Source: an uncultured bacterium (GTDB lineage Bacteria; Babelota; Babeliae; Babelales; Vermiphilaceae). Taken from it: a stretch of DNA of 64,000 nucleotides. Location of the stretch: assembly GCA_963702025.1 (NCBI GenBank), contig OY969699.1:1472001-1536000 (forward strand), written 5' to 3'. The notes under the pieces are model-generated. The model saw nothing but the letters and a program-made list of their open reading frames with translations. It ran no database searches and had not been told where the DNA came from. The translations under genes and the position numbers were made by a program. This document shows, piece after piece, positions 22,845 through 64,000 of the stretch. Numbering within the stretch: position 1 is the stretch's first letter; each line of letters starts with the position of its first letter.

Positions 22845-22881
<37 letters not shown>

Positions 22882-24134: not shown

Positions 24135-24339
24135 ATAGTTACGGCCGCCGTTTACCGGGGCTTCAATTCAAAGCTTTGCCTTACGGCTGACTTCTCCTAT
24201 TGACCTTCCGGCACTGGGCAGGCGTCAGACTCTATACTTCCTCTTACGAGTTTGCAGAGCCCTGTGTTTTTGTTAAACAGTCGGTTGGGCCTCTTTGTTG
24301 AAACCTAACAATGCTTTTAAAGTAAACTTTATAACATTA

Positions 24340-24386
<47 letters not shown>

Positions 24387-24960: not shown

Positions 24961-25023
<63 letters not shown>

Positions 25024-25593: not shown

Positions 25594-25625
<32 letters not shown>

Positions 25626-33144: not shown

Positions 33145-33154
33145 TGTAATCCCT

Positions 33155-34828: not shown

Positions 34829-34886
34829 CTACCCACATTATTACCTGCTGCTCGCCAGTTCAAGGCGAGCAGCAGCTTATTATTTC

Positions 34887-36962: not shown

Positions 36963-37027
36963 CTGAAAAATCTTTCTTTTATTTTTTATTCAAAAACACA
37001 CACAAAAAATTAGTTAAGCAAACCCTC

Positions 37028-39142
<2,115 letters not shown>

Positions 39143-39294
39143 TTATAAAAGAGAAAAATTCCTTACTCTTATAATTATTAGCTTATTTAATGTTCATTGT
39201 GCAAGAGCAAAAGAAAGGGCAGCAACTTAACGCTGTGCCCGTACCCATTTGGGTTGCTCGAAATTAGCCTCAGAAGTAATTCACCCAGAAGATC

Positions 39295-41868: not shown

Positions 41869-41942
41869 ATATCCTAAGATCTTAGAAGATTTAGCATTTT
41901 TTAGGGCGGTAGTCGTTTCAAACTACCGCCCCGATTTCATAT

Positions 41943-44054
41943 CTAAACACCTATAGCAAGATAATTAAACGGGACACTCAATACGGCACCACTTAATACT
42001 GATGCGGTCGTAGCCGTTATTGAATTGAGTCCCAAAATACCAACAATGCCACCTATTGAAGTAAGATAAATCAAAGGGGCACTGGTAAATCCTGCGGCAG
42101 AATAATTTATAGTTATCGTACCGGTGAGTCCTGTATTACCGGTTCCGGTATATATTTTAACTAAAGGTCCTTGAGTACTGCCAACTGCATTCAAGGTTGT
42201 TGCGCTCGTATTAAATAATATATTATCGGAACTTGACACATTGCCGGTTATCAGAGCACCACCACCATCAATAGTTAATCCTACTTCTGAAGAACCGGGA
42301 GTAGCAATGGTCACCGCCCCATTTGCATCTATGGAAAGCGCGCCAACACCATTAGTGCTTAGGGTTAAAATATTTGATGCAGCAGATAACCCAACATTAG
42401 TATTGCCAGTAAACTGCAGTGAAGGATTTGCAGCACTTCCGCCGGGAAGCACTAATGATCCGGTCATCGTATCGCCAGCGACAAGAACGTTATTGGATGC
42501 ACTACCCGTAACATCGCCCACCAAATCAGCCGTAATCACATTTGCGCTGAAATTACCTAAAGAATCACGCGCAACAATTGCGCCGGCAGTGTTTGTTGAA
42601 GTTGCCGTTGTAGCAGAATTTAAAACCTTTCCGGGCGTTTGGATCGTAGCCAATTTAGTATCCTGAATATTGGCACTGGTATTAATATCACTATCAACAA
42701 TGCTATTGGTAAGATCAAGCTGCGAATATTCAATGCCAGCGTTTGCTGCTAAATTGGCTGAAGTTAATCCAGTAATATCTGCCACTGAAGAACTATTTGG
42801 AAAAGCGGTAAAACCATTCGTTCCAAAAGTAGTATCGAGTGATCCATCGGTATTATAACGTGCAAGAAGAGCATTAGTGCTTGCATAACCACCAATTATA
42901 ATTTGACCACTGCTATTAAGCACCACAGTATTTGCAGCCGTACCCAAACCGGAGGAGTCCACAACAACACCCGGCTGATCACCACTACTATTAAAGGATG
43001 TATCCAGGGAGCCATCCGCAGCATTGTAACGAACAATTACAAATGAATTATCAGCAAGGCCGGCCGCAACGATATTTCCATCAGATTGAACCACCAAGCC
43101 ATTTACCTGAGCAAAAGATGCGCCACCAATTGCCGTTGTAACAATACCACTACTTCCAAATGCCGTATCAAGTGATCCATCAGAATTATAGCGAACCAAC
43201 ACAAAACTATTGCTGCCATTACCACCGCCAATAACAATTTGTCCATTGGATTGGATCACCAGAGCATAAGCGCCATTATTGCCGGCAGGGGTCAATACTG
43301 CTCCCGGCTGCACTCCACTCGAATTAAATGTTGTGTCCAATGAACCATCGGCATTATTAAATCGAGCAACGGTAAAACAAGAATTGCCGAATGTATCCTG
43401 CGCAAATCCGCCAACTAAAATCTGATCATCCGATTGCACAGCAACCGCGCGTCCGACTGATTGTTGCCCAATTTGAATGCTCACTACCCCACCTGAACCA
43501 AAAGAACTATCTAACGTACCATCGGTGTTACAGCGAGTTAGAGCGGTAACGGGAGAACCGCTCACTATAGCCACTCCTGCAGCAAGATATTGCCCGGTAG
43601 ATTGTAGAGCAACACCATTCGCTTGCCCACCATTTCCCACCAAATAAATATTATTTCCGGTACCGTTGAATGAAGTATCAGGGCTACCGTCAGTATTATA
43701 TAAAGCAATTGCAAAGTTCGTCGGAGGCACAATTGCATACCCTCCAACGAATGCTTCATTATTAGAAAGAAGAGTTAACCCATTGATTTCAGATTGGGTT
43801 GTACTTAATGCGGTGGCAACATAGCCGCTATTACCATAAGTAACATCAGGAATGCCAAAATTATTGTATCTGGCAATTGAAAATTGGACCAGGTCATTCA
43901 ATTCCACATAGCCGGCCCCAACAATGCTACCATCACTTTGAATTTGCACTGAAAAGATTTCAGCTGCGGTTACTCCCGGTGTCGCTGGTAGCTGAGAAGC
44001 AAAACCGGCAAGAAGGAGCAAAATAGACAATTTTTTTATCAAAAAAGTATTCAT
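41943..44054 (-). CDS. Delta-60 repeat protein with tail-fibre-like stalk and tip
   Basis: Full-length paralog of 34887 and 44077; ends NYLAIGV. Confidence 0.85.
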   Translation of the reverse strand: MNTFLIKKLSILLLLAGFASQLPATPGVTAAEIFSVQIQSDGSIVGAGYVELNDLVQFSIARYNNFGIPDVTYGNSGYVATALSTTQSEINGLTLLSNNEAFVGGYAIVPPTNFAIALYNTDGSPDTSFNGTGNNIYLVGNGGQANGVALQSTGQYLAAGVAIVSGSPVTALTRCNTDGTLDSSFGSGGVVSIQIGQQSVGRAVAVQSDDQILVGGFAQDTFGNSCFTVARFNNADGSLDTTFNSSGVQPGAVLTPAGNNGAYALVIQSNGQIVIGGGNGSNSFVLVRYNSDGSLDTAFGSSGIVTTAIGGASFAQVNGLVVQSDGNIVAAGLADNSFVIVRYNAADGSLDTSFNSSGDQPGVVVDSSGLGTAANTVVLNSSGQIIIGGYASTNALLARYNTDGSLDTTFGTNGFTAFPNSSSVADITGLTSANLAANAGIEYSQLDLTNSIVDSDINTSANIQDTKLATIQTPGKVLNSATTATSTNTAGAIVARDSLGNFSANVITADLVGDVTGSASNNVLVAGDTMTGSLVLPGGSAANPSLQFTGNTNVGLSAASNILTLSTNGVGALSIDANGAVTIATPGSSEVGLTIDGGGALITGNVSSSDNILFNTSATTLNAVGSTQGPLVKIYTGTGNTGLTGTITINYSAAGFTSAPLIYLTSIGGIVGILGLNSITATTASVLSGAVLSVPFNYLAIGV

Positions 44055-44076
44055 GGGATCCTTTTAATTATAAGGT

Positions 44077-46134
44077 TTAAATACCGAGAGCAATATAGTT
44101 AAACGGCACATTAAAATTTGCTGGACTCATTATTGTTGCTGATTGATTCGTAATCAAATTAATACTCAACGTTACTGAGGTTCCACTAATAGAATTGGCA
44201 CATATAACCGGTGGATTACTAAATCCGGCAGCACTATAATCTATGGAAACCTGCCCTCGAAGTCCTGTATTTGCAACTCCAGAAAAGATTTTAACAAATG
44301 GCCCCTGCGTGCTTCCTACCGAATTTAGATCCAATGAGCTTGTATTAAAAACAATGTTCCCAGAACCTAAAATATCACCCTTTATTAATGCTCCCCCACC
44401 ATTAATAGTCAGTGCAGTTCCGGCAGTAGGGGTATTGATGAGCAAAGCTCCATTGCTATCAATAGCAACACGCTCAATTCCCTGGGTACTTATTGATAAT
44501 GTACCCGCATCGGCCGATAATCCGGTAGTTAAACTACCGTCAAATTGTAAAGCCGGTTGAGCAAATGTTCCCGAAGGCAACACCAGCGAACCGGACATGG
44601 TATCACCCGATTTTAATAGATTTTGAGTTGCGCTCCCGATAACGTTTCCTAGCAAATCGGCTGATATTACTTGAGCGCTAAAATTACCCAGTGTATCGCG
44701 GGCAACGATGGCTCCGGAGCTATTTAACGCGGTCGCCGTTGTTGCGGAATTAAGAACTTTGCCGGGAGTCTGAATTGTTTGCAATTTGGCATCTGCAATA
44801 GCCGCAGCGGCATTAATATCGCTATTAATTATGCTGTTATTTAAATTGAGCTTGGCATATGCAATATTCGCATCAGCGGCAATGTTAACATCGGCAATTC
44901 CAAAAATATCCGGCGCATTATAATCATTAGGAAAATTGATCACGCCATTAACACCAAATGTAGTATCAAGAGAACCATTAGTATTATAACGTAAAACAAC
45001 TGTCCCGTTATTTGAACTTCCACTCACTATAATTTGGCCATTGGATTGCAATGAAACAGAATTGGCAAGGGCCGTGGTGCCTGCTTCTGTTATCACAATA
45101 CCGCCTGAACCAAATGTGGTATCCAGAGAGCCATTCCTAGTATAGCGCGCAAGGGCAATATCGTTTTGTGAAAAGCCAACGGCAACAATCTTGCCATCAC
45201 TTTGCAATACAATATCATTAATTTGCGCACTGCTGCCAATAGCAGTGGTCACAATACCACCAAATCCAAAGGTTGTATCTAAAGATCCATTCGCTTTATA
45301 GCGTGCGAGCGCAAATTTTGCATTGCTCACCCCTGCCGCAATAATATAATTATTGGATTGAACAGCGATTGCATAAGCGCAAGCATCAGATCCTATGGGC
45401 GTAACGATGGTGCCGACACTACCAAAAGTAGTATCGAGTGAGCCATCGGTATTAAACCGCACCAAACCAAATTCACGCGTTCCGGCATTCACCGTATACC
45501 CGACTGTAATAATTTTTCCAGTATTTTGAAATGCAAAATCATAAGCACCCGCATTACCAAAAATGCGTTTGGTTGCTATACCACTCTCGCCAAATGAAGC
45601 GTCGAGAGTTCCATCAGCCTTATAACGAACAACAGTTACAATCGGTGCACCGCCGATTATGGAGGTACCCGCAGCAACATATCGATTGCTCGAATCAACC
45701 ATAATGGCATGCGCGCATGCGCCAGTCCCTATATATTGAGTAACAATACCGCTACCATTGAATGCCAGATCAAGATCGCCATTCTTATTGTACTGCGCAA
45801 GTGCAAATGTGGTCCCTGCCGATAGCTGCGCCAAGCCCGCAACTACCGCTTGACCGCTATTCATTGTTAATGCGTTAATAATAGCATCGGTACCAAGCGG
45901 CGTTGCAACATAGCCGTTATACCCATATGCGGTATCAATCGTTCCAAATGGCGTATAGCGGGCGAGCATTAATTGCTGCAAATTATTTACCGTTACCGTC
46001 CCTGCCACAATAATTTTATTATCATTTTGTAGTTGAACCGCATTTCCTTGCGCATTGGTAACTCCTAACGTTGCCATTATGCATATATTATGAGATAGCA
46101 GAAAGAAAATACCTATTTTTAAAACAATCCTCAT
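44077..46134 (-). CDS. Delta-60 repeat protein with tail-fibre-like stalk and tip (start 46134 or 46140)
   Basis: AAGGAG SD upstream; IAYAKLNL..IINSDINAAAAIADAKL; ends NYIALGI. Confidence 0.85.
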   Translation of the reverse strand: MRIVLKIGIFFLLSHNICIMATLGVTNAQGNAVQLQNDNKIIVAGTVTVNNLQQLMLARYTPFGTIDTAYGYNGYVATPLGTDAIINALTMNSGQAVVAGLAQLSAGTTFALAQYNKNGDLDLAFNGSGIVTQYIGTGACAHAIMVDSSNRYVAAGTSIIGGAPIVTVVRYKADGTLDASFGESGIATKRIFGNAGAYDFAFQNTGKIITVGYTVNAGTREFGLVRFNTDGSLDTTFGSVGTIVTPIGSDACAYAIAVQSNNYIIAAGVSNAKFALARYKANGSLDTTFGFGGIVTTAIGSSAQINDIVLQSDGKIVAVGFSQNDIALARYTRNGSLDTTFGSGGIVITEAGTTALANSVSLQSNGQIIVSGSSNNGTVVLRYNTNGSLDTTFGVNGVINFPNDYNAPDIFGIADVNIAADANIAYAKLNLNNSIINSDINAAAAIADAKLQTIQTPGKVLNSATTATALNSSGAIVARDTLGNFSAQVISADLLGNVIGSATQNLLKSGDTMSGSLVLPSGTFAQPALQFDGSLTTGLSADAGTLSISTQGIERVAIDSNGALLINTPTAGTALTINGGGALIKGDILGSGNIVFNTSSLDLNSVGSTQGPFVKIFSGVANTGLRGQVSIDYSAAGFSNPPVICANSISGTSVTLSINLITNQSATIMSPANFNVPFNYIALGI

Positions 46135-46228
46135 CGGCACGGTAACTCCTTTAAATGTAACCTTACTTCTTTGACCATACAAACTACTTTAAATTAATAA
46201 ATCCCTTCTCAATTAATTATTTAAAGAC

Positions 46229-50575
<4,347 letters not shown>

Positions 50576-50578
50576 TCC

Positions 50579-51352
50579 TTAGGAAACACGTGTTATGGTG
50601 AGAGTAATACTCGGTTGCACACCATTGATTGGTGTCATAATACTGCTATTGCCACTATTTGCCTCTAATTGCACAAAATCTGTCCCACCGGTAAATTGCA
50701 GTTTAAGCACATCGTTCTCATTAATCGATGCAATAAAAGAACGCGTTAGCGATAATGGTTTATTATTTGTTGGTTGTTGAATTGTTCCTTGGCTGCCGGG
50801 TATCTCAACACCATTAAGCACCGCAATTATACTAACGTTTGATAGCTGGGAGTTGGTGATGCGGCAAATCGCATCATATTCAATTAAATAATTGCCCGTC
50901 TGCGCACAAAAAAACTCTGCCGACGGCGGTAAAATTACCCATCCATTGATGATCGGCGCATCGGTGAATATTATATCCTGAAACGTTGGTGCAGAAACGC
51001 CAATAGTTTGAGTTATTGCTCGGTAAGCAAAAACATAATTAGCCCCGATCGCCCCACTGTTATAGATGGTGCCGCACACTACAAGGTTTCCTTGAACCTG
51101 TAAATTCTGTCCAATACATGCATTATTTGATACTTGCAAACTACAAAACTGTGAGCCCGTTAATGAGCAGCCGGAAGCACAGGCGCAGGTGATACACGAA
51201 CGAATATGCGCTAAATAATCTTGCGAAAGACCGCTATTTTCATCCAGAAATGATATAGGTCCCTTTTTTTCTTGCGCATTGATATCGAATGATTCTAATA
51301 ATATGAGCAAGAAAAAAAGATAGTTTTGTTTTATAGAATAAATGTACCTCAT
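50579..51352 (-). CDS. Secreted BclA/C1q-like domain protein with Cys-rich neck, first gene of the fibre cluster
   Basis: C-terminal domain matches those of 37028 and 46229 (NYVFAY, C.QTG.Y, LNG.EIPGSQ, TITRVS). Confidence 0.75.
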   Translation of the reverse strand: MRYIYSIKQNYLFFLLILLESFDINAQEKKGPISFLDENSGLSQDYLAHIRSCITCACASGCSLTGSQFCSLQVSNNACIGQNLQVQGNLVVCGTIYNSGAIGANYVFAYRAITQTIGVSAPTFQDIIFTDAPIINGWVILPPSAEFFCAQTGNYLIEYDAICRITNSQLSNVSIIAVLNGVEIPGSQGTIQQPTNNKPLSLTRSFIASINENDVLKLQFTGGTDFVQLEANSGNSSIMTPINGVQPSITLTITRVS

Positions 51353-51584: not shown

Positions 51585-53123
51585 ATGCGGCACATAAAAA
51601 TATCTTTGCAGCTAATAATCCTTTGCTTGGTAAACTCTAACGCATTTCCTCTGGTGAAAGTAAGTATAATAACTCACTTTGATAAAAATGATTCAATCGT
51701 TGATTTTTTGCATCAAGCAAGTGAGGAGGATTATGAAAATTGTCAGATATTGTTAGTTTCTAATAATGCCAGCCAACAACAAATAGCCGCAATTAAACAA
51801 TTTCAATATCTTTTGCATAATATAGTCTGTATTACTGATGAAACAAAAACTGTCGCAGCTCTTCTTAATGAAGCAATCAAAAATTCTTCAGGAAAATTCA
51901 TTACCCATTTACGCGTTGAGGATTATCGCCCGGCAGCATTGTTTAAAGCGCAAGCTAACGAGCTTGAAAAGAATAGCTCAGTTGATGTGGTATATGGCGA
52001 TTATTATATTACCTATGATAAAAATAAACCTACCAAGCAAGCAGATAAATGGTATTTAAGTGATCTACCTGAATTTAGTCCCCATTTACTTTATCGTGAT
52101 GTCCCGGGCCATCAAGCCATGTGGCGCAAATCACTGCACGAAAAATATGGTTATTTTAAAGAAGATTTTGAATTCCATTTTTTGTGGGAATTTTGGAACC
52201 GATGCGGCGCGCATGATGTTTTGTTTAAGAAGATAACGGGCAACCCGGGCACCTACTATTTTAACTATTTTAATCAGAAAAGAACAATGTTTGGCCCCGC
52301 CGATTTTGAAAAAAGCTATCAAGAAGAAAAATATATCCGCGACAGCTACTCCTCTTTGTGGAAACTCAAAGAGATTCAAAAGCCTTTTGTGATAGTTACT
52401 GCATCATATAAAAACAAGGATTGGTACAAATGGAACTTGGATATTATTTTATGTCAAAATTACACCAATTATCGCATCATCTATATTGATGATAAATCTC
52501 CCGATGATACCGGTAGATTAGTACAAGAATATGCCAAATCATTAGGCAAAGAAGACTTGATTGAAGTTATTATCAATGATCATAATGTCGGCGCCCTGGA
52601 AAACATATATAATGCTATTCATTCATGTAAAAAATATGAGATAGTGCTTCTTGTTGACGGTGATGACACGCTTGCCCATTATGATGTTTTGAAATATTTA
52701 AATACGGCCTATCAAGATCCTAACGTTTGGCTCACTTATGGCCAGTTTCAATGGTTCCCGGCGAACATTCCGGGATTTGCGCGTGAGATTCCGTCCGGTG
52801 TGCTTGAAAACAATACAATTCGCGAACATCGCTGGTTAACCACCCATTTGCGTACGTTTTATGCAGGATTGTTCCAGCTTATCAAGAGAGAAGATTTACT
52901 CTGGAACGATAGGTTTTTCCCCATGGCATGGGATCTTGGCATTATGTATCCCATGATAGAAATGGCCGCCTTTCGTACCAAATTTATTCCCGATATTCTT
53001 TATTTGTATAATACCGCAAATCAGATTAACGATAATAAAGTAAATCTTGACCTTCAAGGCGAAATTGATACTTTTATTCGGCATAAACAAAGATATCAAC
53101 CGATTTCAAGTTTCTTATATTAA
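51585..53123 (+). CDS. Two-domain GT2-family glycosyltransferase with signal-like N-terminus
   Basis: Degenerate N-terminal GT-A domain; C-terminal domain with IDDKSPD and VDGDD motifs. Confidence 0.85.
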   Translation: MRHIKISLQLIILCLVNSNAFPLVKVSIITHFDKNDSIVDFLHQASEEDYENCQILLVSNNASQQQIAAIKQFQYLLHNIVCITDETKTVAALLNEAIKNSSGKFITHLRVEDYRPAALFKAQANELEKNSSVDVVYGDYYITYDKNKPTKQADKWYLSDLPEFSPHLLYRDVPGHQAMWRKSLHEKYGYFKEDFEFHFLWEFWNRCGAHDVLFKKITGNPGTYYFNYFNQKRTMFGPADFEKSYQEEKYIRDSYSSLWKLKEIQKPFVIVTASYKNKDWYKWNLDIILCQNYTNYRIIYIDDKSPDDTGRLVQEYAKSLGKEDLIEVIINDHNVGALENIYNAIHSCKKYEIVLLVDGDDTLAHYDVLKYLNTAYQDPNVWLTYGQFQWFPANIPGFAREIPSGVLENNTIREHRWLTTHLRTFYAGLFQLIKREDLLWNDRFFPMAWDLGIMYPMIEMAAFRTKFIPDILYLYNTANQINDNKVNLDLQGEIDTFIRHKQRYQPISSFLY

Positions 53124-53372
53124 CGTGAACTCGACCTAAGAAAATTTTACCTATGTCCGCTCGTGGTGAGTGATTGCGAAGCAATCGTACCTGTCCTCCG
53201 AAGCTTTAGCGTAGGACGGATCGAACCATGCGGACAAAACACAATTGATTTTATTACTCAAAAGGCCGCATAGATTCGATATGCCTCATTTCATTCGGCT
53301 ACTCACTACGAGCGGCCTGAAGAAATTTACCTAAACTAAAGCTTTTTTATCAATTCTTAGGTCGAACTCGCG
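53124..53372. mobile_element. MITE-like non-autonomous element enclosing nested REP-like palindromes
   Basis: Terminal IR CGTGAACTCGACCTAAGAA / TTCTTAGGTCGAACTCGCG, flanked by direct repeat TTATATTAA (53115-53123, 53373-53381). Confidence 0.7.
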
Positions 53373-53393
53373 TTATATTAATTATTTTCTAAA

Positions 53394-53432
53394 AACTGAT
53401 TCGCCGCAAGTAACGCTTGCGGCGAATCAGTT
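53394..53432. terminator. Perfect 17-bp hairpin between convergent genes
   Basis: AACTGATTCGCCGCAAG-TAACG-CTTGCGGCGAATCAGTT. Confidence 0.7.
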
Positions 53433-53457
53433 AACTTATGAACTTTTTAGGGAATGT

Positions 53458-54834
53458 CTAGTAAATGCCAACCGAAACGATCACGTCTCCCGTTTGCGCG
53501 CCGGCGGTTGATGATATTTGCATACAGATATCATCACCTTGGTCAAAGTGAACAGATACCGTATCCATAATTGCGAAAGTTTCTAAATCGCTCAACGTTA
53601 TTGATAGGATGGTATCCAGAGGCACAAGATCAGTTGGCCGTTTACGCTGTAAGGTAAATGTAGTGGACTGCCCGAGCCCCGGTGGGTCAACAACACGAAC
53701 AGTCATTGATAGAGCAACAAATTTTTGCAAAGCACTAATTAAAATGGGAATAAATGAAGCAAACCCCGTACCCGGACGCAAATAAAGCGTATCTCCCGGA
53801 CCAACGGGATTATCTGAATCTGCCCAAATAAAAAATGATGGGTAATCTAAGGAATCAAATCCAAGACCATTTGCTGTAGAATTAAATAAATACGTTGAAC
53901 CTAAACCCAATGTTCCGGAAGTTTGAGAAATATCAGCAGTTGAACCGCTTACTTGAGAACTAAAGCAGGATATAATCGTTATACCCGACATACTATTGGT
54001 TTCGATCCCAATCGAATCAGTCCCGCCATCCACTTGAATTGATGAAGTAGTCATTACGATATATTGATCCGACTCGGCAAGGACCCCTCTGGATCTCCCG
54101 CTACTATTTGAAGTAACATTTATAATTACTACTCCAAAAAGATCATTTATCGTTGGTACTGACAAACCGGTATAATTAACACCAATAATATCTGAAGTTG
54201 TAGGGCCCGCTTCAGTATTATCTAAGATAATTCGCACATATGTGATAGTGGTTGTTTCAAGATCCGGCCCTCCGGGGCTAACATGAGTAATCCCACGGAT
54301 TTGAACATCAGCAGCAGCAGTTACTTTTAAATCCAAAAATAAAAGACTTCCGCCTTCTCCTAATGTTATTAAATCAGTCGGCTCAGTAACGTTCAATTGT
54401 TGAATAGTCACAGTGTTTATGGAAACGCCCGCTAAGGTAACCCCCTCCGGCACAACAAGGACCTCATTATATACACCGGGATAAACCAACACTAAATCGC
54501 CATCATCCGCTTGTGACAATGCGACACCAATTGTTTGAAAGCGCGGACCATTTGCAGCACCTATATCATCATCGCCATCCACCTGATCAACAATCAGCGT
54601 ATTGCCGTAGCCGCCAATGATCGGGGTGCCGTTCACACATAACTGGCCGGTAACATTTGCATTGCAAAAGTTAGCCACCGATCCGGTGAAAGAACAGGTG
54701 CGCAACAGTTGCTGTTGAATCATGGGATCACTCGGTAAAGATCGTGGAATTTTGGCATACGAATTGCCACATACCAATAAATAAAAAAACACTAATACGC
54801 AATATTTCCATTTATGAAAGAAATATGACAGCAT
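53458..54834 (-). CDS. Secreted beta-helix (pectin-lyase/tailspike-like) protein
   Basis: Signal peptide; VDQVDGDD..F.TI..AL..GD.VLVYPGVYNE..VPEGVTL.G entry motif; acidic, beta-rich body. Confidence 0.7.
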   Translation of the reverse strand: MLSYFFHKWKYCVLVFFYLLVCGNSYAKIPRSLPSDPMIQQQLLRTCSFTGSVANFCNANVTGQLCVNGTPIIGGYGNTLIVDQVDGDDDIGAANGPRFQTIGVALSQADDGDLVLVYPGVYNEVLVVPEGVTLAGVSINTVTIQQLNVTEPTDLITLGEGGSLLFLDLKVTAAADVQIRGITHVSPGGPDLETTTITYVRIILDNTEAGPTTSDIIGVNYTGLSVPTINDLFGVVIINVTSNSSGRSRGVLAESDQYIVMTTSSIQVDGGTDSIGIETNSMSGITIISCFSSQVSGSTADISQTSGTLGLGSTYLFNSTANGLGFDSLDYPSFFIWADSDNPVGPGDTLYLRPGTGFASFIPILISALQKFVALSMTVRVVDPPGLGQSTTFTLQRKRPTDLVPLDTILSITLSDLETFAIMDTVSVHFDQGDDICMQISSTAGAQTGDVIVSVGIY

Positions 54835-55008
54835 TGTCTACCTTTTTTTAGCGAAAACATAATTAACTATTACTCAACCAATTTGAGCCAATCAAAATAT
54901 CTTTGTCAAGAATTAAAATACTTCTGACAAATCACAAAGATGTGTGGAGTATGACTGAGAAAGGATTTAGCAAATCATTAGGAATTCTTGATTCCCCAAG
55001 GCAAAAAT

Positions 55009-56367
55009 TTACGGCAAAAGCTGATGCAACTTACTCATCAAGTAAAAGGGAATTGAAAATAATGTATATTGCACTTGTTCCCCTTGATGATTCTTTACAT
55101 TAACCGCGGTTTGACTTGGCAAATCAGAATTTATGCGGACCGCTGTAGTAAATTTCTTTAATCCCATAAAAAAATGCAATGATTTTAAACTACCGGTGCT
55201 CCCCGCTTTAACTTCCACCGGAATCACTTGATTACGATGTTGCATCACATAGTCAATTTCTGCATTCGAGCCTTTCTGATCGCGGTGCCAATAATAAAGA
55301 GCCGGTTCAACATAAAAAGGAGCAACAGTACGTAAAATCTGCCCCACTACTTGTTCGGCAATACCACGCTTGTTAACTAAATCAATTTCATCTATTGCGG
55401 ATAGCTGATCAAGAGATAACCCCAAAACTGTTGAACATAATCCAACATCTAAAAAAATTACCTTCATATATTTATCTTGAATTTCGGCCGCAAGAGGTAT
55501 TCCATTTGCGGCGCACCCGACCACACGATGACACACTCTCGCTTTGAAAAGTAAATCTAATGATTGCTTAATTGCGGGTATTTGCACAGAAGGATTTATT
55601 TTGCTATAAACAAATTTTTCGCCCAGATATAGGGGAACGGCCATCATAACTTCATCTAATCTTTGCGTGTTCATTCGCCCGCTATACTTGGCAAAATCAT
55701 CCCGATACGTAGCCATAAGATCATGATGCACTTGGCTAACTTCTTTGAGGGACCGTTTATGTATCCAATCATCTACTGCTTGCGGCATCCCTCCAATAAT
55801 TATGTACTCCTTAAAAAGCGTTAGAAGTTGCTCATGAATTTCTTGTGGAATTTCTGTCTCCCATTTAAAAGCGCTTATATATTCAACAAGCAAAGGCTTA
55901 TTGTTTGCCTGTAAAAATTCCTCGAAGGATAATGGCTCGAGATACATGTAATTGATACGGCCCACCGGCATACTAAAAGTATGCTCGGCAAGAACAAATT
56001 CCAAAAGGGACCCGGCAGCAATAACAGGCAACTCCGGCATATCCTCAGCGAACCATCGCAACTTAGCTAAAAGTTCGGGCGCGGCTTGAATCTCATCCAA
56101 AAATAATACGCATGTACTTGGATCAATAGATTCATTAAATGCCGCACTGAGATTGAGTATTATTCGTTGTGGGTCATTAGATGCAAAAAGAGATACTAAT
56201 TGCGGACGTTTTTCTAAATTTATTTCAATAAGTATCCGCTTCTGCCCTTTTGCCAACTCTCGCACGAGCCATGTTTTGCCAACTTGACGCGCACCGCGAA
56301 TCACTAGTGGCTTACGGGTAGTTGATGCCAACCATTCATTAAGAAATGGCATCCCTTTTCGATACAT
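55009..56367 (-). CDS. AAA_14 / DUF4143 ATP-binding protein
   Basis: GARQVGKT, LDEIQ, GGMP, D.GL, EIDY..PVEVK nuclease-like motif. Confidence 0.9.
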   Translation of the reverse strand: MYRKGMPFLNEWLASTTRKPLVIRGARQVGKTWLVRELAKGQKRILIEINLEKRPQLVSLFASNDPQRIILNLSAAFNESIDPSTCVLFLDEIQAAPELLAKLRWFAEDMPELPVIAAGSLLEFVLAEHTFSMPVGRINYMYLEPLSFEEFLQANNKPLLVEYISAFKWETEIPQEIHEQLLTLFKEYIIIGGMPQAVDDWIHKRSLKEVSQVHHDLMATYRDDFAKYSGRMNTQRLDEVMMAVPLYLGEKFVYSKINPSVQIPAIKQSLDLLFKARVCHRVVGCAANGIPLAAEIQDKYMKVIFLDVGLCSTVLGLSLDQLSAIDEIDLVNKRGIAEQVVGQILRTVAPFYVEPALYYWHRDQKGSNAEIDYVMQHRNQVIPVEVKAGSTGSLKSLHFFMGLKKFTTAVRINSDLPSQTAVNVKNHQGEQVQYTLFSIPFYLMSKLHQLLP

Positions 56368-56552
56368 TATAAGGCCTCCTTGATGGTAATTTTAATAATT
56401 CTAACTGGTTAAATTAAGCCAAGTCAATAAAAGAGGGGGTTCTTTTTTAGAACAATTAATAAAAAGAGACGGTTGTTTTTAATTATAATATATAAATAAT
56501 ATTGTCATAATATATAATATATGATATTTTGATAAGCAAGGAGTATAAAATC

Positions 56553-56780
56553 ATGAAAAAAATAAATGTTACTTTTTCAATACCTACAGAAACAAATGAG
56601 CTTTTACATGCCCTAATCGGCAAAAAAAAATTGAGTTCTTTTGTCGCATCAACACTCAATAAAGCCCTTGAAGAAAAAATGGAAGCATTAAAAAGGGAAT
56701 ATGCCGAAGCTGAAAGAGACCCTGACAGAAAAAAAACTATTGAAGAATGGAAAACTCTCGATGCAGAGGGCTGGGAATGA
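56553..56780 (+). CDS. Putative antitoxin (RHH-like)
   Basis: 75-aa ORF with AAGGAG SD and INVTFSIP beta strand; ATGA overlap with the toxin gene. Confidence 0.75.
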   Translation: MKKINVTFSIPTETNELLHALIGKKKLSSFVASTLNKALEEKMEALKREYAEAERDPDRKKTIEEWKTLDAEGWE

Positions 56781-57112
56781 GCAAATATCCAAAAAGAGGG
56801 GAAATCTTTTGGGTCCATCTTGATCCAACAGTCGGCTCAGAGATCACCAAAAATCGTCCCTGTGTTATTATATCCAATAATGCCGGCAACCAAACATCAT
56901 CGAGAGTTATCGTCGCTCCTATCACAAGTAGTGTAAAAAGAATATTTAGTTTTGAGGTTCCCATTGAAATTAAAGGGAAAAAAGGAAAAATTCTTTTGGA
57001 TCAGATCAGGGCAATCGATAAAATTCGGATTTCTAACAAAATAGAATCTTGTAATGATGATATCATGGATGCCGTAGAAGATGCCTTAAAGATTGTTTTG
57101 GCGCTCAATTAA
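56777..57112 (+). CDS. mazF: PemK/MazF family toxin
   Basis: RGEIFWV.LDPTVGSEI.K.RPCVIIS, VAPITS, DQIRAIDK.RI. Confidence 0.93.
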   Translation: MSKYPKRGEIFWVHLDPTVGSEITKNRPCVIISNNAGNQTSSRVIVAPITSSVKRIFSFEVPIEIKGKKGKILLDQIRAIDKIRISNKIESCNDDIMDAVEDALKIVLALN

Positions 57113-57229
57113 TGAAGTGCAGTGCTTAACGGCTCTTAAGAATAATCTTGCTTCTTCAAGAAATATTACGGAGCCCAAGAAGGAAATATACGCTCTACCA
57201 AAAAATAGATAAAATAAATCTGGCTGCGA

Positions 57230-58009
57230 TTAAAGCGCTGTCTGAAACTCTTTATGATTCTTAGAAAGTGCCAACAATCGTGGCACAAAAGGAAGATCCC
57301 AAAACTCCGGATAACAATAAGATGGGCAAAGAGCCACCGTTGGTGGATTATCAATAAAATAGCGATTTAAATGACTTTCATCATGCCATTTGGCGATAAT
57401 TTTTTGACCAAGATCCTGCACAATATGTTCGGCGCAGGTGGCTGTCAGCTTTAAAAATTCCTGGGTGGTGCCGCCATAAAATCCGCCGGCAAAATAGTAA
57501 AGCCCTTCACCATCACGCACGCAGGCGGTTGAGGCCGCATTTCTTTCATAGTCGTCATGCCGCTGATCCGGCAAAGTAAACCCCGGATGGCGCGTGGCAA
57601 CTCGTTCACCCAGAATTTCATCCCCCACCATGTTTACAAAAAGCATATCCGCATCACAGGCAAATAAATAATCAATCTCTTCAAAATAGGATGCGGCATT
57701 CCAATACACACTAAAACGCATCATGGTATCATAGGGCCAGCCAAGCCGTTTTTGTTCGATGCGGACCACGTTATCCGCTTGTGGCACGTGCCCATCAGTA
57801 AAAATAAAATAGGTGCGATGGTAACCGGGCAAAAAATAGGCATCGGCTGATTCCACTAATTCTTTAAGAAAAACCGTATATTTACCCGTTGCCATAATGA
57901 GCAAGCCAACGTTAAAACGCGGTTTTTCCGGATTTGCAGCATCGGATATATGATTCAAAAAAAGAATACCCATACTTAAATACAAAAATCTACGTAGTAA
58001 TTGGTTCAT
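57230..58009 (-). CDS. GT6 family (ABO-like alpha-1,3-Gal/GalNAc) glycosyltransferase with signal peptide
   Basis: ATGKY, FIFTD, WP..TMMRF, DAD, HPG, YER, YFAGGFYGG, WHDESHLNRY. Confidence 0.9.
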   Translation of the reverse strand: MNQLLRRFLYLSMGILFLNHISDAANPEKPRFNVGLLIMATGKYTVFLKELVESADAYFLPGYHRTYFIFTDGHVPQADNVVRIEQKRLGWPYDTMMRFSVYWNAASYFEEIDYLFACDADMLFVNMVGDEILGERVATRHPGFTLPDQRHDDYERNAASTACVRDGEGLYYFAGGFYGGTTQEFLKLTATCAEHIVQDLGQKIIAKWHDESHLNRYFIDNPPTVALCPSYCYPEFWDLPFVPRLLALSKNHKEFQTAL

Positions 58010-58025
58010 ATATCCTCAGTTTGTA

Positions 58026-58256
58026 CTCCTCCGTTCGCCTCGATGGAGCGCCCTTCGACAAAAAGCTCAGGATAAACTCCGCGCGAGTGCCTGTCCGCCG
58101 AAGCCTTGGCGAAGGCTGGAGAGAGGTCTCCATTCGGCCTTTCAGGCCTCTGGTTCGATGCGGCCAAAAGTGGCCTTACTCACCATAGACCTTCGACTGC
58201 CGCGGCCCCCGATTATCCTGAGCGAGAGAATCGAGTCGAAGGACCCGAACGGGGAG
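58026..58256. repeat. GC-rich nested palindromic (REP-like) element
   Basis: Outer IR CCGTTCG/CGAACGG; inner CCTTCGAC..GCTCAGGATAA / TTATCCTGAGC..GTCGAAGG; embedded CCTGTCCGCCGAAGCCTTGGCGAAGGCTGG. Confidence 0.75.
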
Positions 58257-58260
58257 AGGT

Positions 58261-58947
58261 TCACCCTACCATAATATGCAAAATACATTCATCTTTATTT
58301 TTGACTTCTTGCCAGCTAAAACTTTTCACTTTATCTATGGTTTTTAGGAACGCTTCCATTTTTAATTTGCTATAGCGGTTTTGATAAGTGGTGTAGCCGC
58401 CAACGTTCACCATCCCACCCTTATCTTTAGCGCTATTATCCGGCGCCATAAAGAATACTACCAAAACTTCCTTGCCGGCTACGCGAATCATCTCTCTCAT
58501 TGCATCTTGATATGAATCGAGATGCTCTAAGATATGCCGCGCATACACTATATCAAAACTAGAATCGGCATGCGGCATATTTTGAATGCGGGCCCTTTCA
58601 GCCGGAATTCCCTGTTCTTTAGCTTTGGAAACAAATGTTGAAGAGATATCTAAACCTAAGTAATGAAGATCAGGGCAACTTCTTTTTAAGGGAACATAAT
58701 CAACACAAAAGCCACAGCCGACATCCAATATTGAGGTATATTGCTTTTGGATTATATGCAGCCGTGCCAGAATGCGAGAAACAGCATTTGGATCTCCCCA
58801 CCACCCGGCAAATTCTGCCTGGTTTTTTTCATCGGTAGTTCTAAATTCCCAAATTTCTTCATATTTTTTTAACGGGCCGAAGTCAGCAAATGTAATGCAA
58901 TTAACTGTTACAAAAACCAGAACAAATAATTTTTTACTTAAATTCAT
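58261..58947 (-). CDS. Class I SAM-dependent methyltransferase with signal-like N-terminus
   Basis: ILDVGCG, GLDIS, FDIVYARHILEH; start MNLSKK at 58947 (the ORF-track extension runs through a repeat). Confidence 0.85.
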   Translation of the reverse strand: MNLSKKLFVLVFVTVNCITFADFGPLKKYEEIWEFRTTDEKNQAEFAGWWGDPNAVSRILARLHIIQKQYTSILDVGCGFCVDYVPLKRSCPDLHYLGLDISSTFVSKAKEQGIPAERARIQNMPHADSSFDIVYARHILEHLDSYQDAMREMIRVAGKEVLVVFFMAPDNSAKDKGGMVNVGGYTTYQNRYSKLKMEAFLKTIDKVKSFSWQEVKNKDECILHIMVG

Positions 58948-58983
58948 ATGTATACTCTTAATTTCAATAATGCAATCCGAAAA

Positions 58984-59080
58984 GCATGGTTCGATACGAT
59001 TGCTAACGCAATCACTCAGCACGAACGGACTCCACCACCGTTCGTGCTGAGTAGAAATCGAAGATTTCGTATCGAAGCAT
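58984..59080. repeat. REP-like inverted doublet
   Basis: TTCGATACG-hairpin-ACTCAGCACGAACGG / CCGTTCGTGCTGAGT-hairpin-CGTATCGAA. Confidence 0.75.
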
Positions 59081-59109
59081 CTTTTTACCTAATTCAATTT
59101 AAGAACTCG

Positions 59110-60099
59110 CTATTCTCTTCCCAGCCACTCCTTCACAATAAAAGGTTGATCACCAAATATGAGACTAATTTCATCTACAACCGTATCAGTGCCCGTAACT
59201 GTACCGTGCCATGGTGATATCTGCACTTTATAATCACCCAATTTCGACGCGATAAAAGAAAAATTTGAATCAGCACGAATCAAACAATCAAATCGTGTTA
59301 ATGCAAAAAAATCATCCAGCACATTAATAAATTCATTGTTTTCAGTAGTGCGGTAATCAAAAATCATGCGATCCGAGCGCACAGCCTCAGCATATTTTTG
59401 CGCAAGTTGGCCAGGATCATCATGATCGGTAAAAAGATAAACATATATGGTGCCGTGCTGAAACAATCGAGTAATTTTTTTAAGTTGTTCGATATAAAAT
59501 GAATCGGGGGCAAATCGTAATGGATGTGAAGCAGTGAGCTGCTCGGCCGTAATCCGATAAACGGGAATATCCCAACCCGTTCCCTTGCGCACATGAACCG
59601 CAACGGTAAGCTTATCAGCCGGCAGTGCCGGTATGCATGTCGGATTTAGTGGGCAAATCATTTTCTGCAACAGTGCTTTAAAACCGGGATCTTCCCAATC
59701 TACAAAGAATAAAAACGGGAAAATTTCATCATTACGATTAAATATCGATTCAGGAAAAAACGGAATCACATACAATGTGCCACTATCCGGATCAATAGTA
59801 GAATCGGCAAACGAATATTCAACAACCGCATCAAACTGCGCTTCAAGCTCTTGGCTATAATGAATCTCATAAAGATCAATCATTAACTGATCAGAGTAAC
59901 CAAATGGCTTATAGAGCAATGGAATTCTATATTTGTAAGAAATCCACTTTGCGTGGCAATAAGAAAGAAGATTGTCCCCAAATCTACCGCCGCTAAAGGT
60001 GTAAGTTACCGCGCTGGAGGTGCCCGATAGCGGAGAAACAAGAAACAAAATAATTATACTAAATAACATAATGCGCTGATAAGATACTGAAAAACTCAT
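59110..60099 (-). CDS. GT11-like glycosyltransferase with signal peptide
   Basis: GGRFGDNL, VAVHVRKG, FTD, DF..L..FD.LIRADSNFS. Confidence 0.65.
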   Translation of the reverse strand: MSFSVSYQRIMLFSIIILFLVSPLSGTSSAVTYTFSGGRFGDNLLSYCHAKWISYKYRIPLLYKPFGYSDQLMIDLYEIHYSQELEAQFDAVVEYSFADSTIDPDSGTLYVIPFFPESIFNRNDEIFPFLFFVDWEDPGFKALLQKMICPLNPTCIPALPADKLTVAVHVRKGTGWDIPVYRITAEQLTASHPLRFAPDSFYIEQLKKITRLFQHGTIYVYLFTDHDDPGQLAQKYAEAVRSDRMIFDYRTTENNEFINVLDDFFALTRFDCLIRADSNFSFIASKLGDYKVQISPWHGTVTGTDTVVDEISLIFGDQPFIVKEWLGRE

Positions 60100-60266
60100 A
60101 TGCTCCCTCTTTACGCTCCCAATGAATTGTAAAATTACTTGTAAAATATCCCAACTTTTTATTCTTCACAACTGTAATTTTTCTTTTTTTTATTCGATCT
60201 AGACAAAACAATAGAAAATTAGTAATTCTTGAGCATTACATTTTTTTAAAAAAGTATGGTATTAAA

Positions 60267-61251
60267 ATGAATACAAAAAATATTTCTTTAAGAAGTCTTG
60301 GCGTCTACACTCTTATTTGCAGCCAGGCACTCATAGCCGCTCCAACGTTTGAAAAACAGTGGCAATATGCAGCATGAATATAATCGCATATGCAATTCCC
60401 TTAAAAAGCAAGGTCTGGAAGAATTAGAAGAAACACATGTGCATCCGTATTGGCAAGCCGAGAAAGAAGAAATAAGAAATTTTATATTAGGCGCACCCGA
60501 AAGCAATTTTCTAAGTAACTGGCAAATCCGTTACAATATGGTCAGAAAAGAAATGGGGGCTGCTCAAACGTATGAAATATGTTACTTGGAACATTGCATC
60601 AGCGAAAAGACAAAAAAACAACTTGCGCTTTTTAAAGAAAGTGATTTCGCACAACTTGATATAGACTGTTATCAATTCAATTGTTCAAGCAATACGCTCG
60701 GACATCTTTTTTATGCTGCAAAAGTCTTGGAAAACAAAAAAGATTTACCCATTAATACTATTGTTGAATTTGGTTCAGGATATGGAAACTTGGCACATAT
60801 TTTTAAAACAATTTTACCCGACTCAACTATTTTCCTCATTGATTTGCCGGAAGTATTAGCAATTCAGCTTCTTTTTTTAAAAGCAACAATGCCAAATGTT
60901 CCGGTATATTTTCATTCGGAAGCATGTGCTACATACCAAGAAAAAGCGATCCATCTACTACCAATACACCTTATTAAACAACTTACTATTAATACCGATC
61001 TTTTCATTTCCACTTTTGCGTTAAGCGAATCCACACAAACCATACAAAGATTGGTCATAAAAAATAACTTTTTTAATGCCAAAATGGTGTATATTACCGG
61101 GCAAATTGATGGCTGGGGAAATCTCGATTTTGTATCTCACCCAATCATCATCAGCGCAGTAAAAAGCTATTGTAAAACAACGCAGTGCCAACCAATGCAT
61201 TATATTTTAGGAGATCGTGTTTCATACGAAATTTTAGGCACAACGTATTAA
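60267..61251 (+). pseudogene. Putative sugar O-methyltransferase, frameshifted near 60352-60366 (or sequencing error)
   Basis: Signal-peptide frame MNTKN..ALIA-APTFEK (60267-60377) is offset by one base from the catalytic frame (VEFGSGYG, IDLPE, DLFISTFALSE). Confidence 0.6.
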
Positions 61252-62022
61252 AATTGCATAAATAGAGAGCAGTAATGAGAATAATATCAAAAATTGGGAT
61301 CCAACAGCTCGGTTTTTTATTCAGCATTTTTTTTATTGCAGCACTAACGGCAAATCCCCTCGGGGCAACAACAAACCAAACCGATTTGATTATTTATTCC
61401 TATGATCGCCCCATGCAACTCTACGCGCTGCTTGAATCAATCGAAAAGTATGTCACGGGACTAGCAACTATTTCTGTTATTTACCGCACCAGTAATCACG
61501 CATTTGAAGAGGCATACAAAGAGGTTCAAATCCACTTTACCAACGCACATTTTTTCAAACAATCACCACCGTATGATGATCTTAAAACATTAACGTGCGC
61601 ATGTTTTGCCCAAGCCAAGAGCCCGTATATCCTTTTTGGCGTTGACGATATTATTGTTAAAGATTTTATTAATCTTAATGAATGCATAGATGCGCTCGAA
61701 GAATCACATGCTCATGGCTTCTTCTTTCGGCTGGGGAAAAATCTTGATTTTTGCTACGCAATGAATTGTTCTCAACCTCTGCCACTTTTAAAAAATGTCC
61801 GGCCATGCATATATTCCTGGCATTTTAATGAAGGGCTTTATGATTGGCACTATCCTCATAACCTTGATTTTACCCTGTACTCTAAATCAGATTTTGAAAA
61901 TCTGATTGAATCACTCGATTATAAAACTCCCTACTCATTAGAATCACAACTCATGGGCCATGTGGAGTATAGTAGGATTGGACTTTGTTATGAATCATCA
62001 AAGATTGTTAACTTCCCTCTTA

Positions 62023-62946
62023 GAGCCTATCTGAAAACTAAATTTTCTTGATAATGATTATCTGGAAGGCGAATTGCACTAATGCAAGAAAGTTAATGGA
62101 TAACTTTTCATAGCGAGTGAAAATGCGCCTAAATCGATTTATCCAAGAAAAAGTTCTTTCAACTACCCATCGTTTTAAATCTTTCTCAGAAGCAACACGA
62201 GGTTTGTTTTTCGGCTTCTTTGGAGGCATGACAGGAGTAAAATTTCTTTTGATGGCTTCGGCCTTATTTTTTTTAGAAACAAAGCCTTTATCTGTGCGAA
62301 GATAATGATTTTTGGATTGTGGTATTTGTTGTTGCAAATTATCAATAAGGCTTACAAATACTTGCGTATCATGCCGATTGCCGCTCGCAATAGTGGCTCC
62401 AATCGGGATTCCTGCTTCTTCAACAACAAGATTTAATTTTGTTCCTAATTTTCTTCGATCCACAGGACTTTTTCCTGTTTTATCACCTCCTAAAGGCGAT
62501 TTTTTATGGTTAGAGTCTATTGATTGATCATGAAGAGCTAGGCCTATTTTTCGATCATAAAGCATCAAAACTGTTTTCCAAATTTTTTGAAAAGCACCCG
62601 CTCGAATAAGTTCTTTAAATCTTTGATAAATAGTTTTTGATGGGCCAAAACATAATGGCAGAGCTTCCCATTGACATCCAGTTCTTAACAGATAATACAT
62701 TCCAGCTATTAATGGTTCGTTATCCACACGAGGCCGCCCTGTTTTTTTTGGCGGAATATTTGCTGCTATAAAGTTATGAAATTCTTGCAAAAGTGGTTCA
62801 GGTATGACATATTTTGATGGTATAATTTCTTTGTAATTTAAAAGCTTCATATGAAAAATCCCTCTTTGTTTGTGTTGCTACTACAAGAGGGATTGTATTT
62901 TTTCTATCTATTTTTTCAACTGCCTACAGAGTTTTCAGATAGGCTC
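62023..62946 (-). mobile_element. IS5 family insertion sequence (924 bp)
   Basis: Perfect terminal IR GAGCCTATCTGAAAACT / AGTTTTCAGATAGGCTC, TTA target duplication. Confidence 0.93.
62038..62850 (-). CDS. IS5 family transposase
   Basis: GRPR, LRTGCQW..LP, IDS, DKGF, RWVVERTFSW..RFRR. Confidence 0.95.
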   Translation of the reverse strand: MKLLNYKEIIPSKYVIPEPLLQEFHNFIAANIPPKKTGRPRVDNEPLIAGMYYLLRTGCQWEALPLCFGPSKTIYQRFKELIRAGAFQKIWKTVLMLYDRKIGLALHDQSIDSNHKKSPLGGDKTGKSPVDRRKLGTKLNLVVEEAGIPIGATIASGNRHDTQVFVSLIDNLQQQIPQSKNHYLRTDKGFVSKKNKAEAIKRNFTPVMPPKKPKNKPRVASEKDLKRWVVERTFSWINRFRRIFTRYEKLSINFLALVQFAFQIIIIKKI

Positions 62947-64000
62947 TTAATATCGTGCAAACCGATTGGCCAAACAATTGCGATAATAATTATGGCACCA
63001 CGCAATTACTCGAACTTTTTAACCAAGATCTCAAAATTGACATAAAGCCCATTCATGGCATTGCCAATAAATCGGCCCATATCTCCGGCAATACATTAAT
63101 TACCTTCGTACCCCGTAAACCGCTTGATGAGAAGCTTATTGTTATCGTAACCCCTTCGTATAATAATAAAGACTGGTGGGAGTGGAACCTTTCTTCTCTT
63201 TTGAATCAAAACTATAAGAATTATTACATTCTCATCACCGATGATTGCTCAACGGACGGCACCGGCGATGCATTGGAAAATTATATTACAAGCAACAATC
63301 TTGAACACAAAGTAAAACTGATAAGAAATAAAAAACGCCGTGGGGCATTATATAACCACTATATGATGATTCATGGTTGCCCTAATGAGGCAATAATTGC
63401 AAACGTTGATGGGGATGACAAATTACCAGATGATCCTGAAATATTAAATAGGCTTAATATGATTTATTCGTTGCAAGATGTCTGGCTCACCTATGGGCAA
63501 TTTGTAGAATATCCTAGTGGCCAAAAAGGATGGTGCTGCCCTATTCCTGAAAATATAGTTAAAAATAACTCTTTTAGAGAATTTACCCATTTGCCATCAC
63601 ATTTGCGAACCTATTATACGTGGCTTTTTAAATGTATAAAGCTTGAAGATCTCCTTGATCGCACCGGTAATTTTTATTCAATGACCTGCGATTATGCGAT
63701 GATGCTCCCCATGATAGAAATGGCCGGGGAACGGCATCTCTGCATACAAGATCAAATTATGTATGTCTACAATAGTAGCAATAATCTCAGCGATCACAAA
63801 ATCAGCAGACAACTCCAAGCTCATATTGCTCAAGTAATTTGCGCAAAAAAACGATACAACAGACTTCCTGAGAGTGCAGAATCTTTTGCTCAAAACCTTG
63901 AAAATGAAAAAGCTGATTGGATTATTTTTGCAGAAGATGCCAACCCTGAATTATTAGAACGATTTATCATATCAATACAACACAAAGTTACCGGAACCGG

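Follow-up and report, generated by a model that had tools for sequence, protein, structure and literature searches.

About 40 kb of sugar-chain genes, lying at the end of the 64,000-nucleotide stretch of DNA analysed here (the window, G000:C1:1,472,001-1,536,000) and extending some 28 kb beyond its edge, to about genome position 1,564,300, encode glycosyltransferases, methyltransferases and nucleotide-sugar enzymes which nearly all begin with an export-type leader. Bacteria normally make their surface glycans in the cytoplasm, with nucleotide sugars as donors, and carry them outward on lipid carriers, the periplasm lacking such donors. The observation itself is real and widespread. Judging from sequence features, it is very likely that these enzymes are exported and function outside the cytoplasm in one form or another, and probable that the Sec system delivers them to a host-fed periplasm, where methylated glycans would be built without lipid carriers. 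The genome is a single contig of 1.596 Mb, with 39% GC and 95% completeness. The bacterium, which likely lives as a parasite of single-celled eukaryotes, probably belongs to Ca. Dependentiae (Babelota), given that the closest relatives of its GT6 among named organisms include Dependentiae and environmental Chlamydiae, that the genomes of its phylum are small, and that its own encodes three ATP/ADP translocases and 50 ankyrin-like proteins, with no Lpx match.

The following genes make up the part of the cluster inside the window, together with three donor-converting enzymes beyond it:
51585-53123, plus strand: two-domain GT2 glycosyltransferase with a leader by rule, divergent from the fibre operon (PF00535)
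53458-54834, minus strand: surface-protein-like gene with a leader, inside the cluster, Ser+Thr 20% (weak NF047854)
57230-58009, minus strand: GT6 of the DxD type with a leader, DAD at 119, WHDESHLN (PF03414, 6.6e-52)
58261-58947, minus strand: class I S-adenosylmethionine (SAM) methyltransferase, leader from the ATG at 58947 (PF08241)
59110-60099, minus strand: GT11-like putative fucosyltransferase with a leader, from a large unnamed family (family-wide homologues and motifs)
60267-61251, plus strand: NanM-like sugar O-methyltransferase, leader from 60267, body 60349-61251 (TIGR04371 above cut-off)
61275-62016, plus strand: 5' part of a multidomain glycosyltransferase with a leader, interrupted by IS5 (weak TIGR04440)
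62017-62943, minus strand: insertion sequence (IS) of the IS5 family, transposase 62038-62850 (PF13340, PF01609)
62944-64000, plus strand: 3' part of the IS-split glycosyltransferase, GT2 domain, the gene continuing past the window edge (PF00535)
G000:C1:1545260-1546519, plus strand: WecB with a leader (TIGR00236 above curated cut-off)
G000:C1:1549431-1550528, plus strand: first Gmd with a leader (TIGR01472 above curated cut-off)
G000:C1:1555651-1556766, plus strand: second Gmd with a leader (TIGR01472 above curated cut-off)

Beyond the window, the cluster adds GT2s, a GT4, a GT17, an Anp1-like glycosyltransferase and a sulfotransferase, as well as TylF, FkbM and other methyltransferases. An earlier note on this DNA had found no sugar-nucleotide synthesis at the locus, which is correct inside the window but not 9-20 kb past it, where the two Gmd and WecB lie, all with leaders. 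The catalytic motifs of Gmd, WecB and GT6 are intact, as are the cofactor motifs of Gmd and WecB.

Leaders were scored by a rough hand-made rule in place of SignalP/TMHMM, which calls for an uncharged 10-residue window of mean Kyte-Doolittle hydropathy of at least 2.0, starting at residue 2-17 after a non-negative n-region. In its calibration, the rule passed 20 of 23 signal-peptide proteins of E. coli, 9 of 188 of its cytoplasmic proteins (by their known localisations) and 45 of 4222 internal Met starts. All six cluster enzymes which the earlier note had described in the window as starting with such a leader pass the rule (6/6). Since 797 of the 1434 genes of at least 100 amino acids in the genome also pass (56%, by our own gene caller), these six alone are weak evidence; the high rate agrees with the 44% of coding sequences with a signal by Phobius reported for C. 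destructans (Chromulinavorax, PMC6561590). Throughout the cluster, 27 of 29 enzyme-like genes pass, the two Gmd and WecB among them. With a background of 56-57%, the binomial P lies between about 1e-5 and 2e-5, a value to be read with the non-independence of neighbouring genes and the hand choice of some starts. Of the two misses, one is the GT17, in which a second IS (L002:5891-7236, with a 10-bp duplication) follows the hydrophobic leader and whose frame was started one base off in the scoring; the other is a methyltransferase at 1542435-1543265 which is leader-like by eye. Moreover, GlmS, GlmU, GalU and PGM/GlmM are leaderless, with starts matching those of their E. coli orthologues, while both Gmd, WecB and a distant UDP-glucose dehydrogenase (Ugd) carry 18-29 extra residues which form the leader; in these cases, starting ahead of the hydrophobic segment gives a real extension. 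Among the leader calls inspected, three were discarded as false positives, that of Pyr_redox (a Rossmann strand) and those of PPDK and MPG (probable start mis-calls).

The genome-wide background opens the way to a different explanation, namely that the leaders do not relocate the working enzymes. They would act as membrane tethers or as signals that leak, or be neutral additions upstream, in a lineage which gains leaders easily, with catalysis remaining cytoplasmic. Against this, only 4 of 82 distinct best matches to E. coli cytoplasmic proteins, taken as a housekeeping control, pass the rule, and the anatomy of the leaders points the same way. In fact, the median of the best 19-residue hydrophobicity (W19) is 1.64 for 23 cluster proteins and 1.64 for 21 E. 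coli signal peptides, compared with 2.15 and 2.61 for anchors; a hydrophobic core of at least 19 residues occurs in 0 of 23, and W19 reaches 2.0 in 2 of 23 cluster proteins versus 13 of 21 reference anchors, with overlapping ranges. The long (some 19 or more residues), strongly hydrophobic helix of a signal anchor is thus not what the cluster leaders present. In this set, which includes the surface-protein-like gene at 53458, the n-region is net-positive in 21 of 23 proteins, a small-residue cleavage motif is found in 22 and a lipobox in none; by our own rule and motif counts, the basic n-region, the h-region of 7-15 residues and the small residues at -3/-1 typical of Sec and signal peptidase I substrates are all seen. 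Under the positive-inside rule, a basic N-terminus predicts that the C-terminus is out. In the alignment of the GT11-like family the leader columns vary, whereas the catalytic columns are invariant. The n-h-c anatomy, the cleavable-type hydrophobicity and the variable leader before a conserved domain argue for exported enzymes, as had been proposed, and for cleavable signal peptides rather than uncleaved anchors.

The machinery which such leaders would need is encoded in the genome, with SecA, SecY and LepB (signal peptidase I). Homologues of the type II secretion proteins GspD, E, F, G and O are also present; TatC was not found in this 95% complete genome. As a separate observation, a small-residue-Met-[EDQN] motif follows the leader, with a peak at residues 19-22, in 225 of 663 non-cluster leader proteins genome-wide, 24 of 50 ankyrin-like ones included; it occurs in 20 of 637 proteins that have no leader and in none of the 23 cluster proteins. 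Proteins cut at this motif would begin with Met-Glu/Asp and so resemble eukaryotic NatB acetylation substrates; the motif may mark host-targeted effectors.

Some details of the individual genes had to be revised. The GT6 and GT11-like genes do have leaders, but positions 57230 and 59110, given as their starts, are 3' ends, the starts lying at 58009 and 60099 on the minus strand. The leader of the O-methyltransferase is present at 60267 but out of frame with the body (60349-61251), with a stop after 36 codons; in 9 of 10 homologues it is in frame, and the frameshift at 60349, covered by no public contig, is either a genuine lesion or an assembly error. The IS-split glycosyltransferase was correctly recognised, since a public contig joins 62016 to 62944 without the IS and 783 codons stay in frame. 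The distant GT11-like gene is the following:
19565-20491, plus strand: GT11-like paralogue with a hydrophobic leader, 36% identical to the 59110 gene in the family alignment

The leader of this paralogue, judged by eye, is hydrophobic as had been stated but has no basic residues, which the earlier note had given as usual for these leaders. As for the 59110 protein, no Pfam or NCBIfam match was obtained and the family profile gave 0 matches in a PDB sequence search; its 615 homologues carry the leader in 101 of 107 full-length members, GxxGD and HxR are invariant in the alignment, and an Atlas score of 0.96 links it to PF01531 clusters, a comparison of the family with one GT11 by hhalign being weak (probability 3%). 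Its structure model has a pLDDT of 96. The GT6 belongs to the DxD clade by its PF03414 match and its DAD motif.

Regarding donor supply, MetK was not found in the genome, and ManC and Fcl had no match there, the only NTP-transferases being GalU and GlmU. If these absences are real, SAM and GDP-mannose must come from outside, and for these two the suggestion of host-derived donors gains support. The premise that the periplasm is devoid of donors likely fails, because the inner-membrane ATP/ADP translocases (NTTs), of which the genome has three, work only if host nucleotides reach that compartment. One of them lies in the window:
3755-5146, plus strand: ATP/ADP translocase of the TLC family (PF03219)

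The lack of a flippase or polymerase gene, previously noted for the locus, extends to the whole genome, where BLAST with E. coli queries gave no match for WecA, WcaJ, Wzx, Wzy, Wza or Wzc, although BLAST may miss divergent membrane proteins; an initiating phosphoglycosyl transferase for a lipid-carrier pathway was likewise not found in the genome by BLAST. Enzymes kept in the cytoplasm by non-relocating leaders would be left with no flippase or other glycan export route that could be found. Elsewhere in the genome there is one leaderless GT2, and also a second small cluster with a leader-bearing Ugd and two GT2 (G000:C1:165200-169081), near which three leader-bearing oxidoreductases with Rossmann motifs lie.

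Under the reading favoured here, the glycosyltransferases, methyltransferases, sulfotransferase, Gmd and WecB would be exported unfolded by Sec to the periplasm and their leaders cleaved. Because there is no Tat system, folding and the loading of NAD(P) or SAM would take place after export. Host metabolites would reach the periplasm, as the inner-membrane translocases require, with nucleotide sugars and SAM likely drawn from the host cytosol. Methylated, likely deoxyhexose-containing glycans would then be built directly on exported surface molecules; the acceptors would be Ser/Thr-rich proteins exported by Sec, including the adjacent fibres, and for this reason no lipid carrier or flippase would be needed. 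Among related organisms, C. destructans is described as having no lipopolysaccharide (LPS) genes and as replicating in the host cytoplasm (PMC6561590), and B. massiliensis as having three porins (PMC4378268).

The leaders are not confined to this genome. Gmd is present in 140 of 251 genomes of the phylum, and 90 Gmd loci were examined, comprising the 30 best-scoring and 60 hand-picked across families from 150 listed, a non-random sample. In these loci, and after dropping 2, 1 and 3 edge or incomplete frames respectively, the leader was found by rule in 55 of 99 Gmd, 24 of 51 Fcl and 10 of 37 ManC. Soluble neighbours bear leaders in 105 of 161 cases at leader-Gmd loci versus 38 of 97 at leaderless ones, while polytopic membrane neighbours occur at 6 of 49 leader-Gmd loci versus 15 of 36 leaderless ones. 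The GT6 leader is present in 23 of 26 close homologues, from Dependentiae, chlamydial and unclassified metagenome-assembled genome (MAG) loci, versus 0 of 6 distant ones. Furthermore, an ATP sulfurylase/APS kinase (the synthase of phosphoadenosine phosphosulfate, PAPS) with a leader lies beside a sulfotransferase at one Dependentiae locus, and MetK, found in 7 of 121 phylum genomes, bears a leader in 6 of the 7, where it is the sole MetK match (L199-L204; rule on the first Met, plus inspection by eye). One chlamydial MAG has leader-bearing Gmd and Fcl and also a leaderless Gmd; in two other examined chlamydial MAGs no epimerase leader was seen by eye, the three flags of the rule being an N-terminal Rossmann strand. 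These data allow a wider proposal, still tentative and somewhat short of probable, that Dependentiae, and also certain environmental chlamydiae, maintain an extracytoplasmic metabolic compartment fed by the host, in which Sec-exported ManC-Gmd-Fcl, Ugd, WecB, PAPS synthase and MetK would make the donors for methylated and sulfated surface glycans assembled without lipid carriers. A second recurrent glycosylation layout was also observed, in which loci L077, L092, L101 and L129 hold leaderless gmd-fcl operons with manC nearby, a membrane protein of 6-8 helices and one adjacent leader-bearing soluble protein.

Several observations weigh against export to a host-fed periplasm. The rule is crude and half of the genome scores. 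Two Gmd were found in the genome but neither Fcl nor another reductase, leaving the deoxysugar route incomplete here. Mixed operons occur, with ManC bearing a leader and Gmd and Fcl leaderless in L086, and with Gmd bearing one and Fcl leaderless in L011, L012 and L119, so that intermediates would need to pass through the inner membrane. In 3 of 30 genomes, this one included (G000:C1:640238-641089; L229, L231), the single-copy UppS has a hydrophobic leader, as does Adk in 4 of 29 (L261, L265, L279, L286), and many leader-bearing Fcl retain the native Met after the leader, which makes internal starts possible. The two IS insertions and the frameshift suggest relaxed selection, decay or variation, and Babela is reported to grow in a vacuole, a further barrier to host donors (PMC4378268). 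Finally, the leaders lack the specificity to glycosylation which had been supposed: a sample of 117 non-cluster leader proteins (about 440 kb, 52 with the small-residue-Met-[EDQN] motif excluded) includes four GNATs, an SDR, an Adk-like paralogue, a CPT-like kinase, a pyridoxal phosphate (PLP) enzyme and a SET protein. Leaders on non-glycan enzymes make this a genome-wide habit, consistent both with a host-fed compartment and with a ready gain of leaders. The leader-bearing Adk-like protein is, in this genome, an extra paralogue (G000:C1:1107720-1108337) besides the canonical Adk.

Part of this evidence favours leaders without effect on location, namely the UppS leader, the retained native Met and the mixed operons, to which the history of the trait must be added. 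On a FastTree tree of Gmd, for which four labels were added and one removed by eye, leader status changes 11 times, at least 3 of these being forced by well-supported branches, versus 33 changes when shuffled; closely related paralogues differ in status, and eight genomes hold both leader-bearing and leaderless Gmd. Nevertheless, 90% or more of the GT11-like and of the O-methyltransferase homologues have kept the leader, and with the short cores, the basic N-termini and the housekeeping control this explanation appears quite unlikely.

The mixed operons would also be explained by a Golgi-like arrangement, in which the enzymes are periplasmic but UDP-GlcNAc and UDP-Glc are made in the bacterial cytoplasm and exported by the EamA/DMT transporters of the cluster. 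Such an arrangement agrees with GlmU and GalU being leaderless and the downstream users WecB and Ugd leader-bearing, and with the two EamA genes at the end of the cluster:
G000:C1:1561609-1562565, plus strand: EamA transporter 1 (family match)
G000:C1:1563238-1564290, minus strand: EamA transporter 2 (family match)

One of the two has a weak nucleotide-sugar-transporter match (8e-5; 22.3 bits against PF04142, cut-off 27), and EamA gave 0 matches in a PDB sequence search. However, the family is present in 245 of 251 phylum genomes, and glycan-type neighbours are visible at 5 of 29 loci, all of the same genus, so that EamA as a dedicated part of the cluster is unsupported beyond the genus by its direct neighbours. 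Among the EamA copies listed, some lie 10-17 kb from Gmd (G006, G015, G104, G138, G079). Moreover, a role like that of Chlamydia CTL843, described as an importer of SAM and S-adenosylhomocysteine (SAH; PMC3104491), fits the lack of MetK, and import of SAM by EamA seems at least as likely as export of nucleotide sugars. Since the Golgi-like arrangement provides no GDP-mannose or SAM here, it is considered very unlikely.

A further possibility, considered unlikely, is that Sec export is followed by type II secretion into the vacuole or the host cytosol, where host molecules would be modified or a coat built from outside. The GspD, E, F, G and O homologues would serve such a route, all the donors are available in the host cytosol, and an export of MetK, ManC and PAPS synthase would be consistent with it. 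Precedents exist in the inclusion-lumen glycogen enzymes of Chlamydia (PMC4829429) and the glycogene clusters of giant viruses (PMC10117803). On the other hand, the Met motif of the presumed effectors is found in 0 of 23 cluster proteins, hinting at a different class, and a strain-variable cluster of 29 enzymes looks like a surface-antigen locus.

Returning to export into the periplasm, the candidate acceptors are encoded next to the cluster:
32332-51352, minus strand: fibre operon encoding DUF5122 propeller, collagen-like and BclA_C proteins with leaders (Pfam)

Ser+Thr content is 17-36% in the fibre proteins versus a genome median of 11%, and collagen and BclA_C domains occur among them, BclA being a glycosylated collagen-like protein. 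The divergent fibre/glycan layout is seen again in 2 of 5 genomes from the same genus (G155, G215). Nevertheless, DUF5122 is without a match in at least 10 genomes whose Gmd bears a leader, and the idea of the fibres as the defined target is not sustained; they are plausible but non-defining acceptors. As obligatory partners they were rejected, DUF5122 being present in 78 of 251 genomes versus 140 of 251 for Gmd. Among the DUF5122 matches listed, beyond which there are 775 more, those of G020, G027, G108, G162 and G213 are far from Gmd; in G146, the distance between DUF5122 and a Gmd without leader is about 16 kb. Outside the genus, the link to the fibres does not hold.

Other features were recorded along the way. 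An AAA_14/DUF4143 ATPase and a MazE/MazF-like toxin-antitoxin pair, all leaderless, sit inside the glycan cluster (window 55009-57112), and a short intergenic repeat element at about 59014-59084 recurs elsewhere in public contigs. The window also encodes a leader-bearing FAD/NAD(P) oxidoreductase (15969-17126) and a leader-bearing protein which, by its motif, resembles ADP-ribosylglycohydrolase (8074-9177). Elsewhere in the genome, tandem Cys-rich leader-bearing proteins without Pfam match at 1e-9, possibly outer-membrane proteins, surround two genes without leaders, one of them a GT2 (G000:C1:134326-147834). The 23S rRNA match at window 22399-26159 spans 3761 nt versus a model of 2925 positions and overlaps an open reading frame (23530-24099) which, by its motif, resembles a homing endonuclease; this suggests that the 23S rRNA gene holds an intron.

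Surface-polysaccharide loci of the Wzx/Wzy and oligosaccharyltransferase types use the same enzyme families as this cluster, the difference being that no lipid-carrier genes were found here. As in the eukaryotic Golgi, Leloir glycosyltransferases would act beyond a membrane; unlike in the Golgi, the donor-converting enzymes also bear leaders, and these look cleavable. The closest bacterial case is that of C. trachomatis, an intracellular bacterium which exports normally cytoplasmic sugar enzymes, its glycogen enzymes acting in the inclusion lumen on host UDP-Glc (Gehre et al. 2016, PMC4829429). According to the same source, type 3 secretion is used there, explicitly with no signal peptides, the product is a storage homopolymer and GlgC stays inside, whereas here Sec-type leaders are found on about 28 heteroglycan enzymes, donor-converting ones included. 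The glycogene clusters of the Megavirinae, also parasites of protists, are comparable in that 6-33 clade-variable genes encode nucleotide-sugar pathways and glycosyltransferases (PMC10117803), but the viral enzymes need to cross no membrane, while here a bacterium would export its own. A very large Sec-dependent secretome and the lack of LPS genes are shared with C. destructans and Babela (PMC6561590, PMC4378268), the secretome of the latter including ankyrins (PMC4378268), and type II secretion genes are common to Dependentiae (PMC4776705) and this genome. The main texts of PMC6561590 and PMC4378268 contain no discussion of glycosyltransferases, the word stem 'glycos' appearing 0 times in one and once, for a DNA glycosylase, in the other; such predictions may be listed in their supplements. 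The window GT6, with its DAD motif, resembles PaGT6 of Parachlamydia acanthamoebae, a metal-dependent prokaryotic GT6 of the DxD type without a C-terminal membrane domain; the passages on PaGT6 mention no signal peptide or exported pathway, whereas a leader is predicted here (PMC3516806). No account of a Sec-exported nucleotide-sugar pathway was found in the literature covered, which excludes subscription journals and supplements.

If the proposal is true, this route lies outside the bacterial glycosylation routes described so far and has no described counterpart. It would say what covers the envelope of the LPS-less Babeliales, and it would mean that the large secretomes of such parasites include metabolic enzymes as well as effectors, while providing a source of soluble, export-tolerant glycosyl-, methyl- and sulfotransferases. 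As relatives have been cultured, the claim can be tested directly. Should the leaders work as predicted, the periplasm of an energy parasite would be a workshop fed by its host, and a third route to surface glycosylation.

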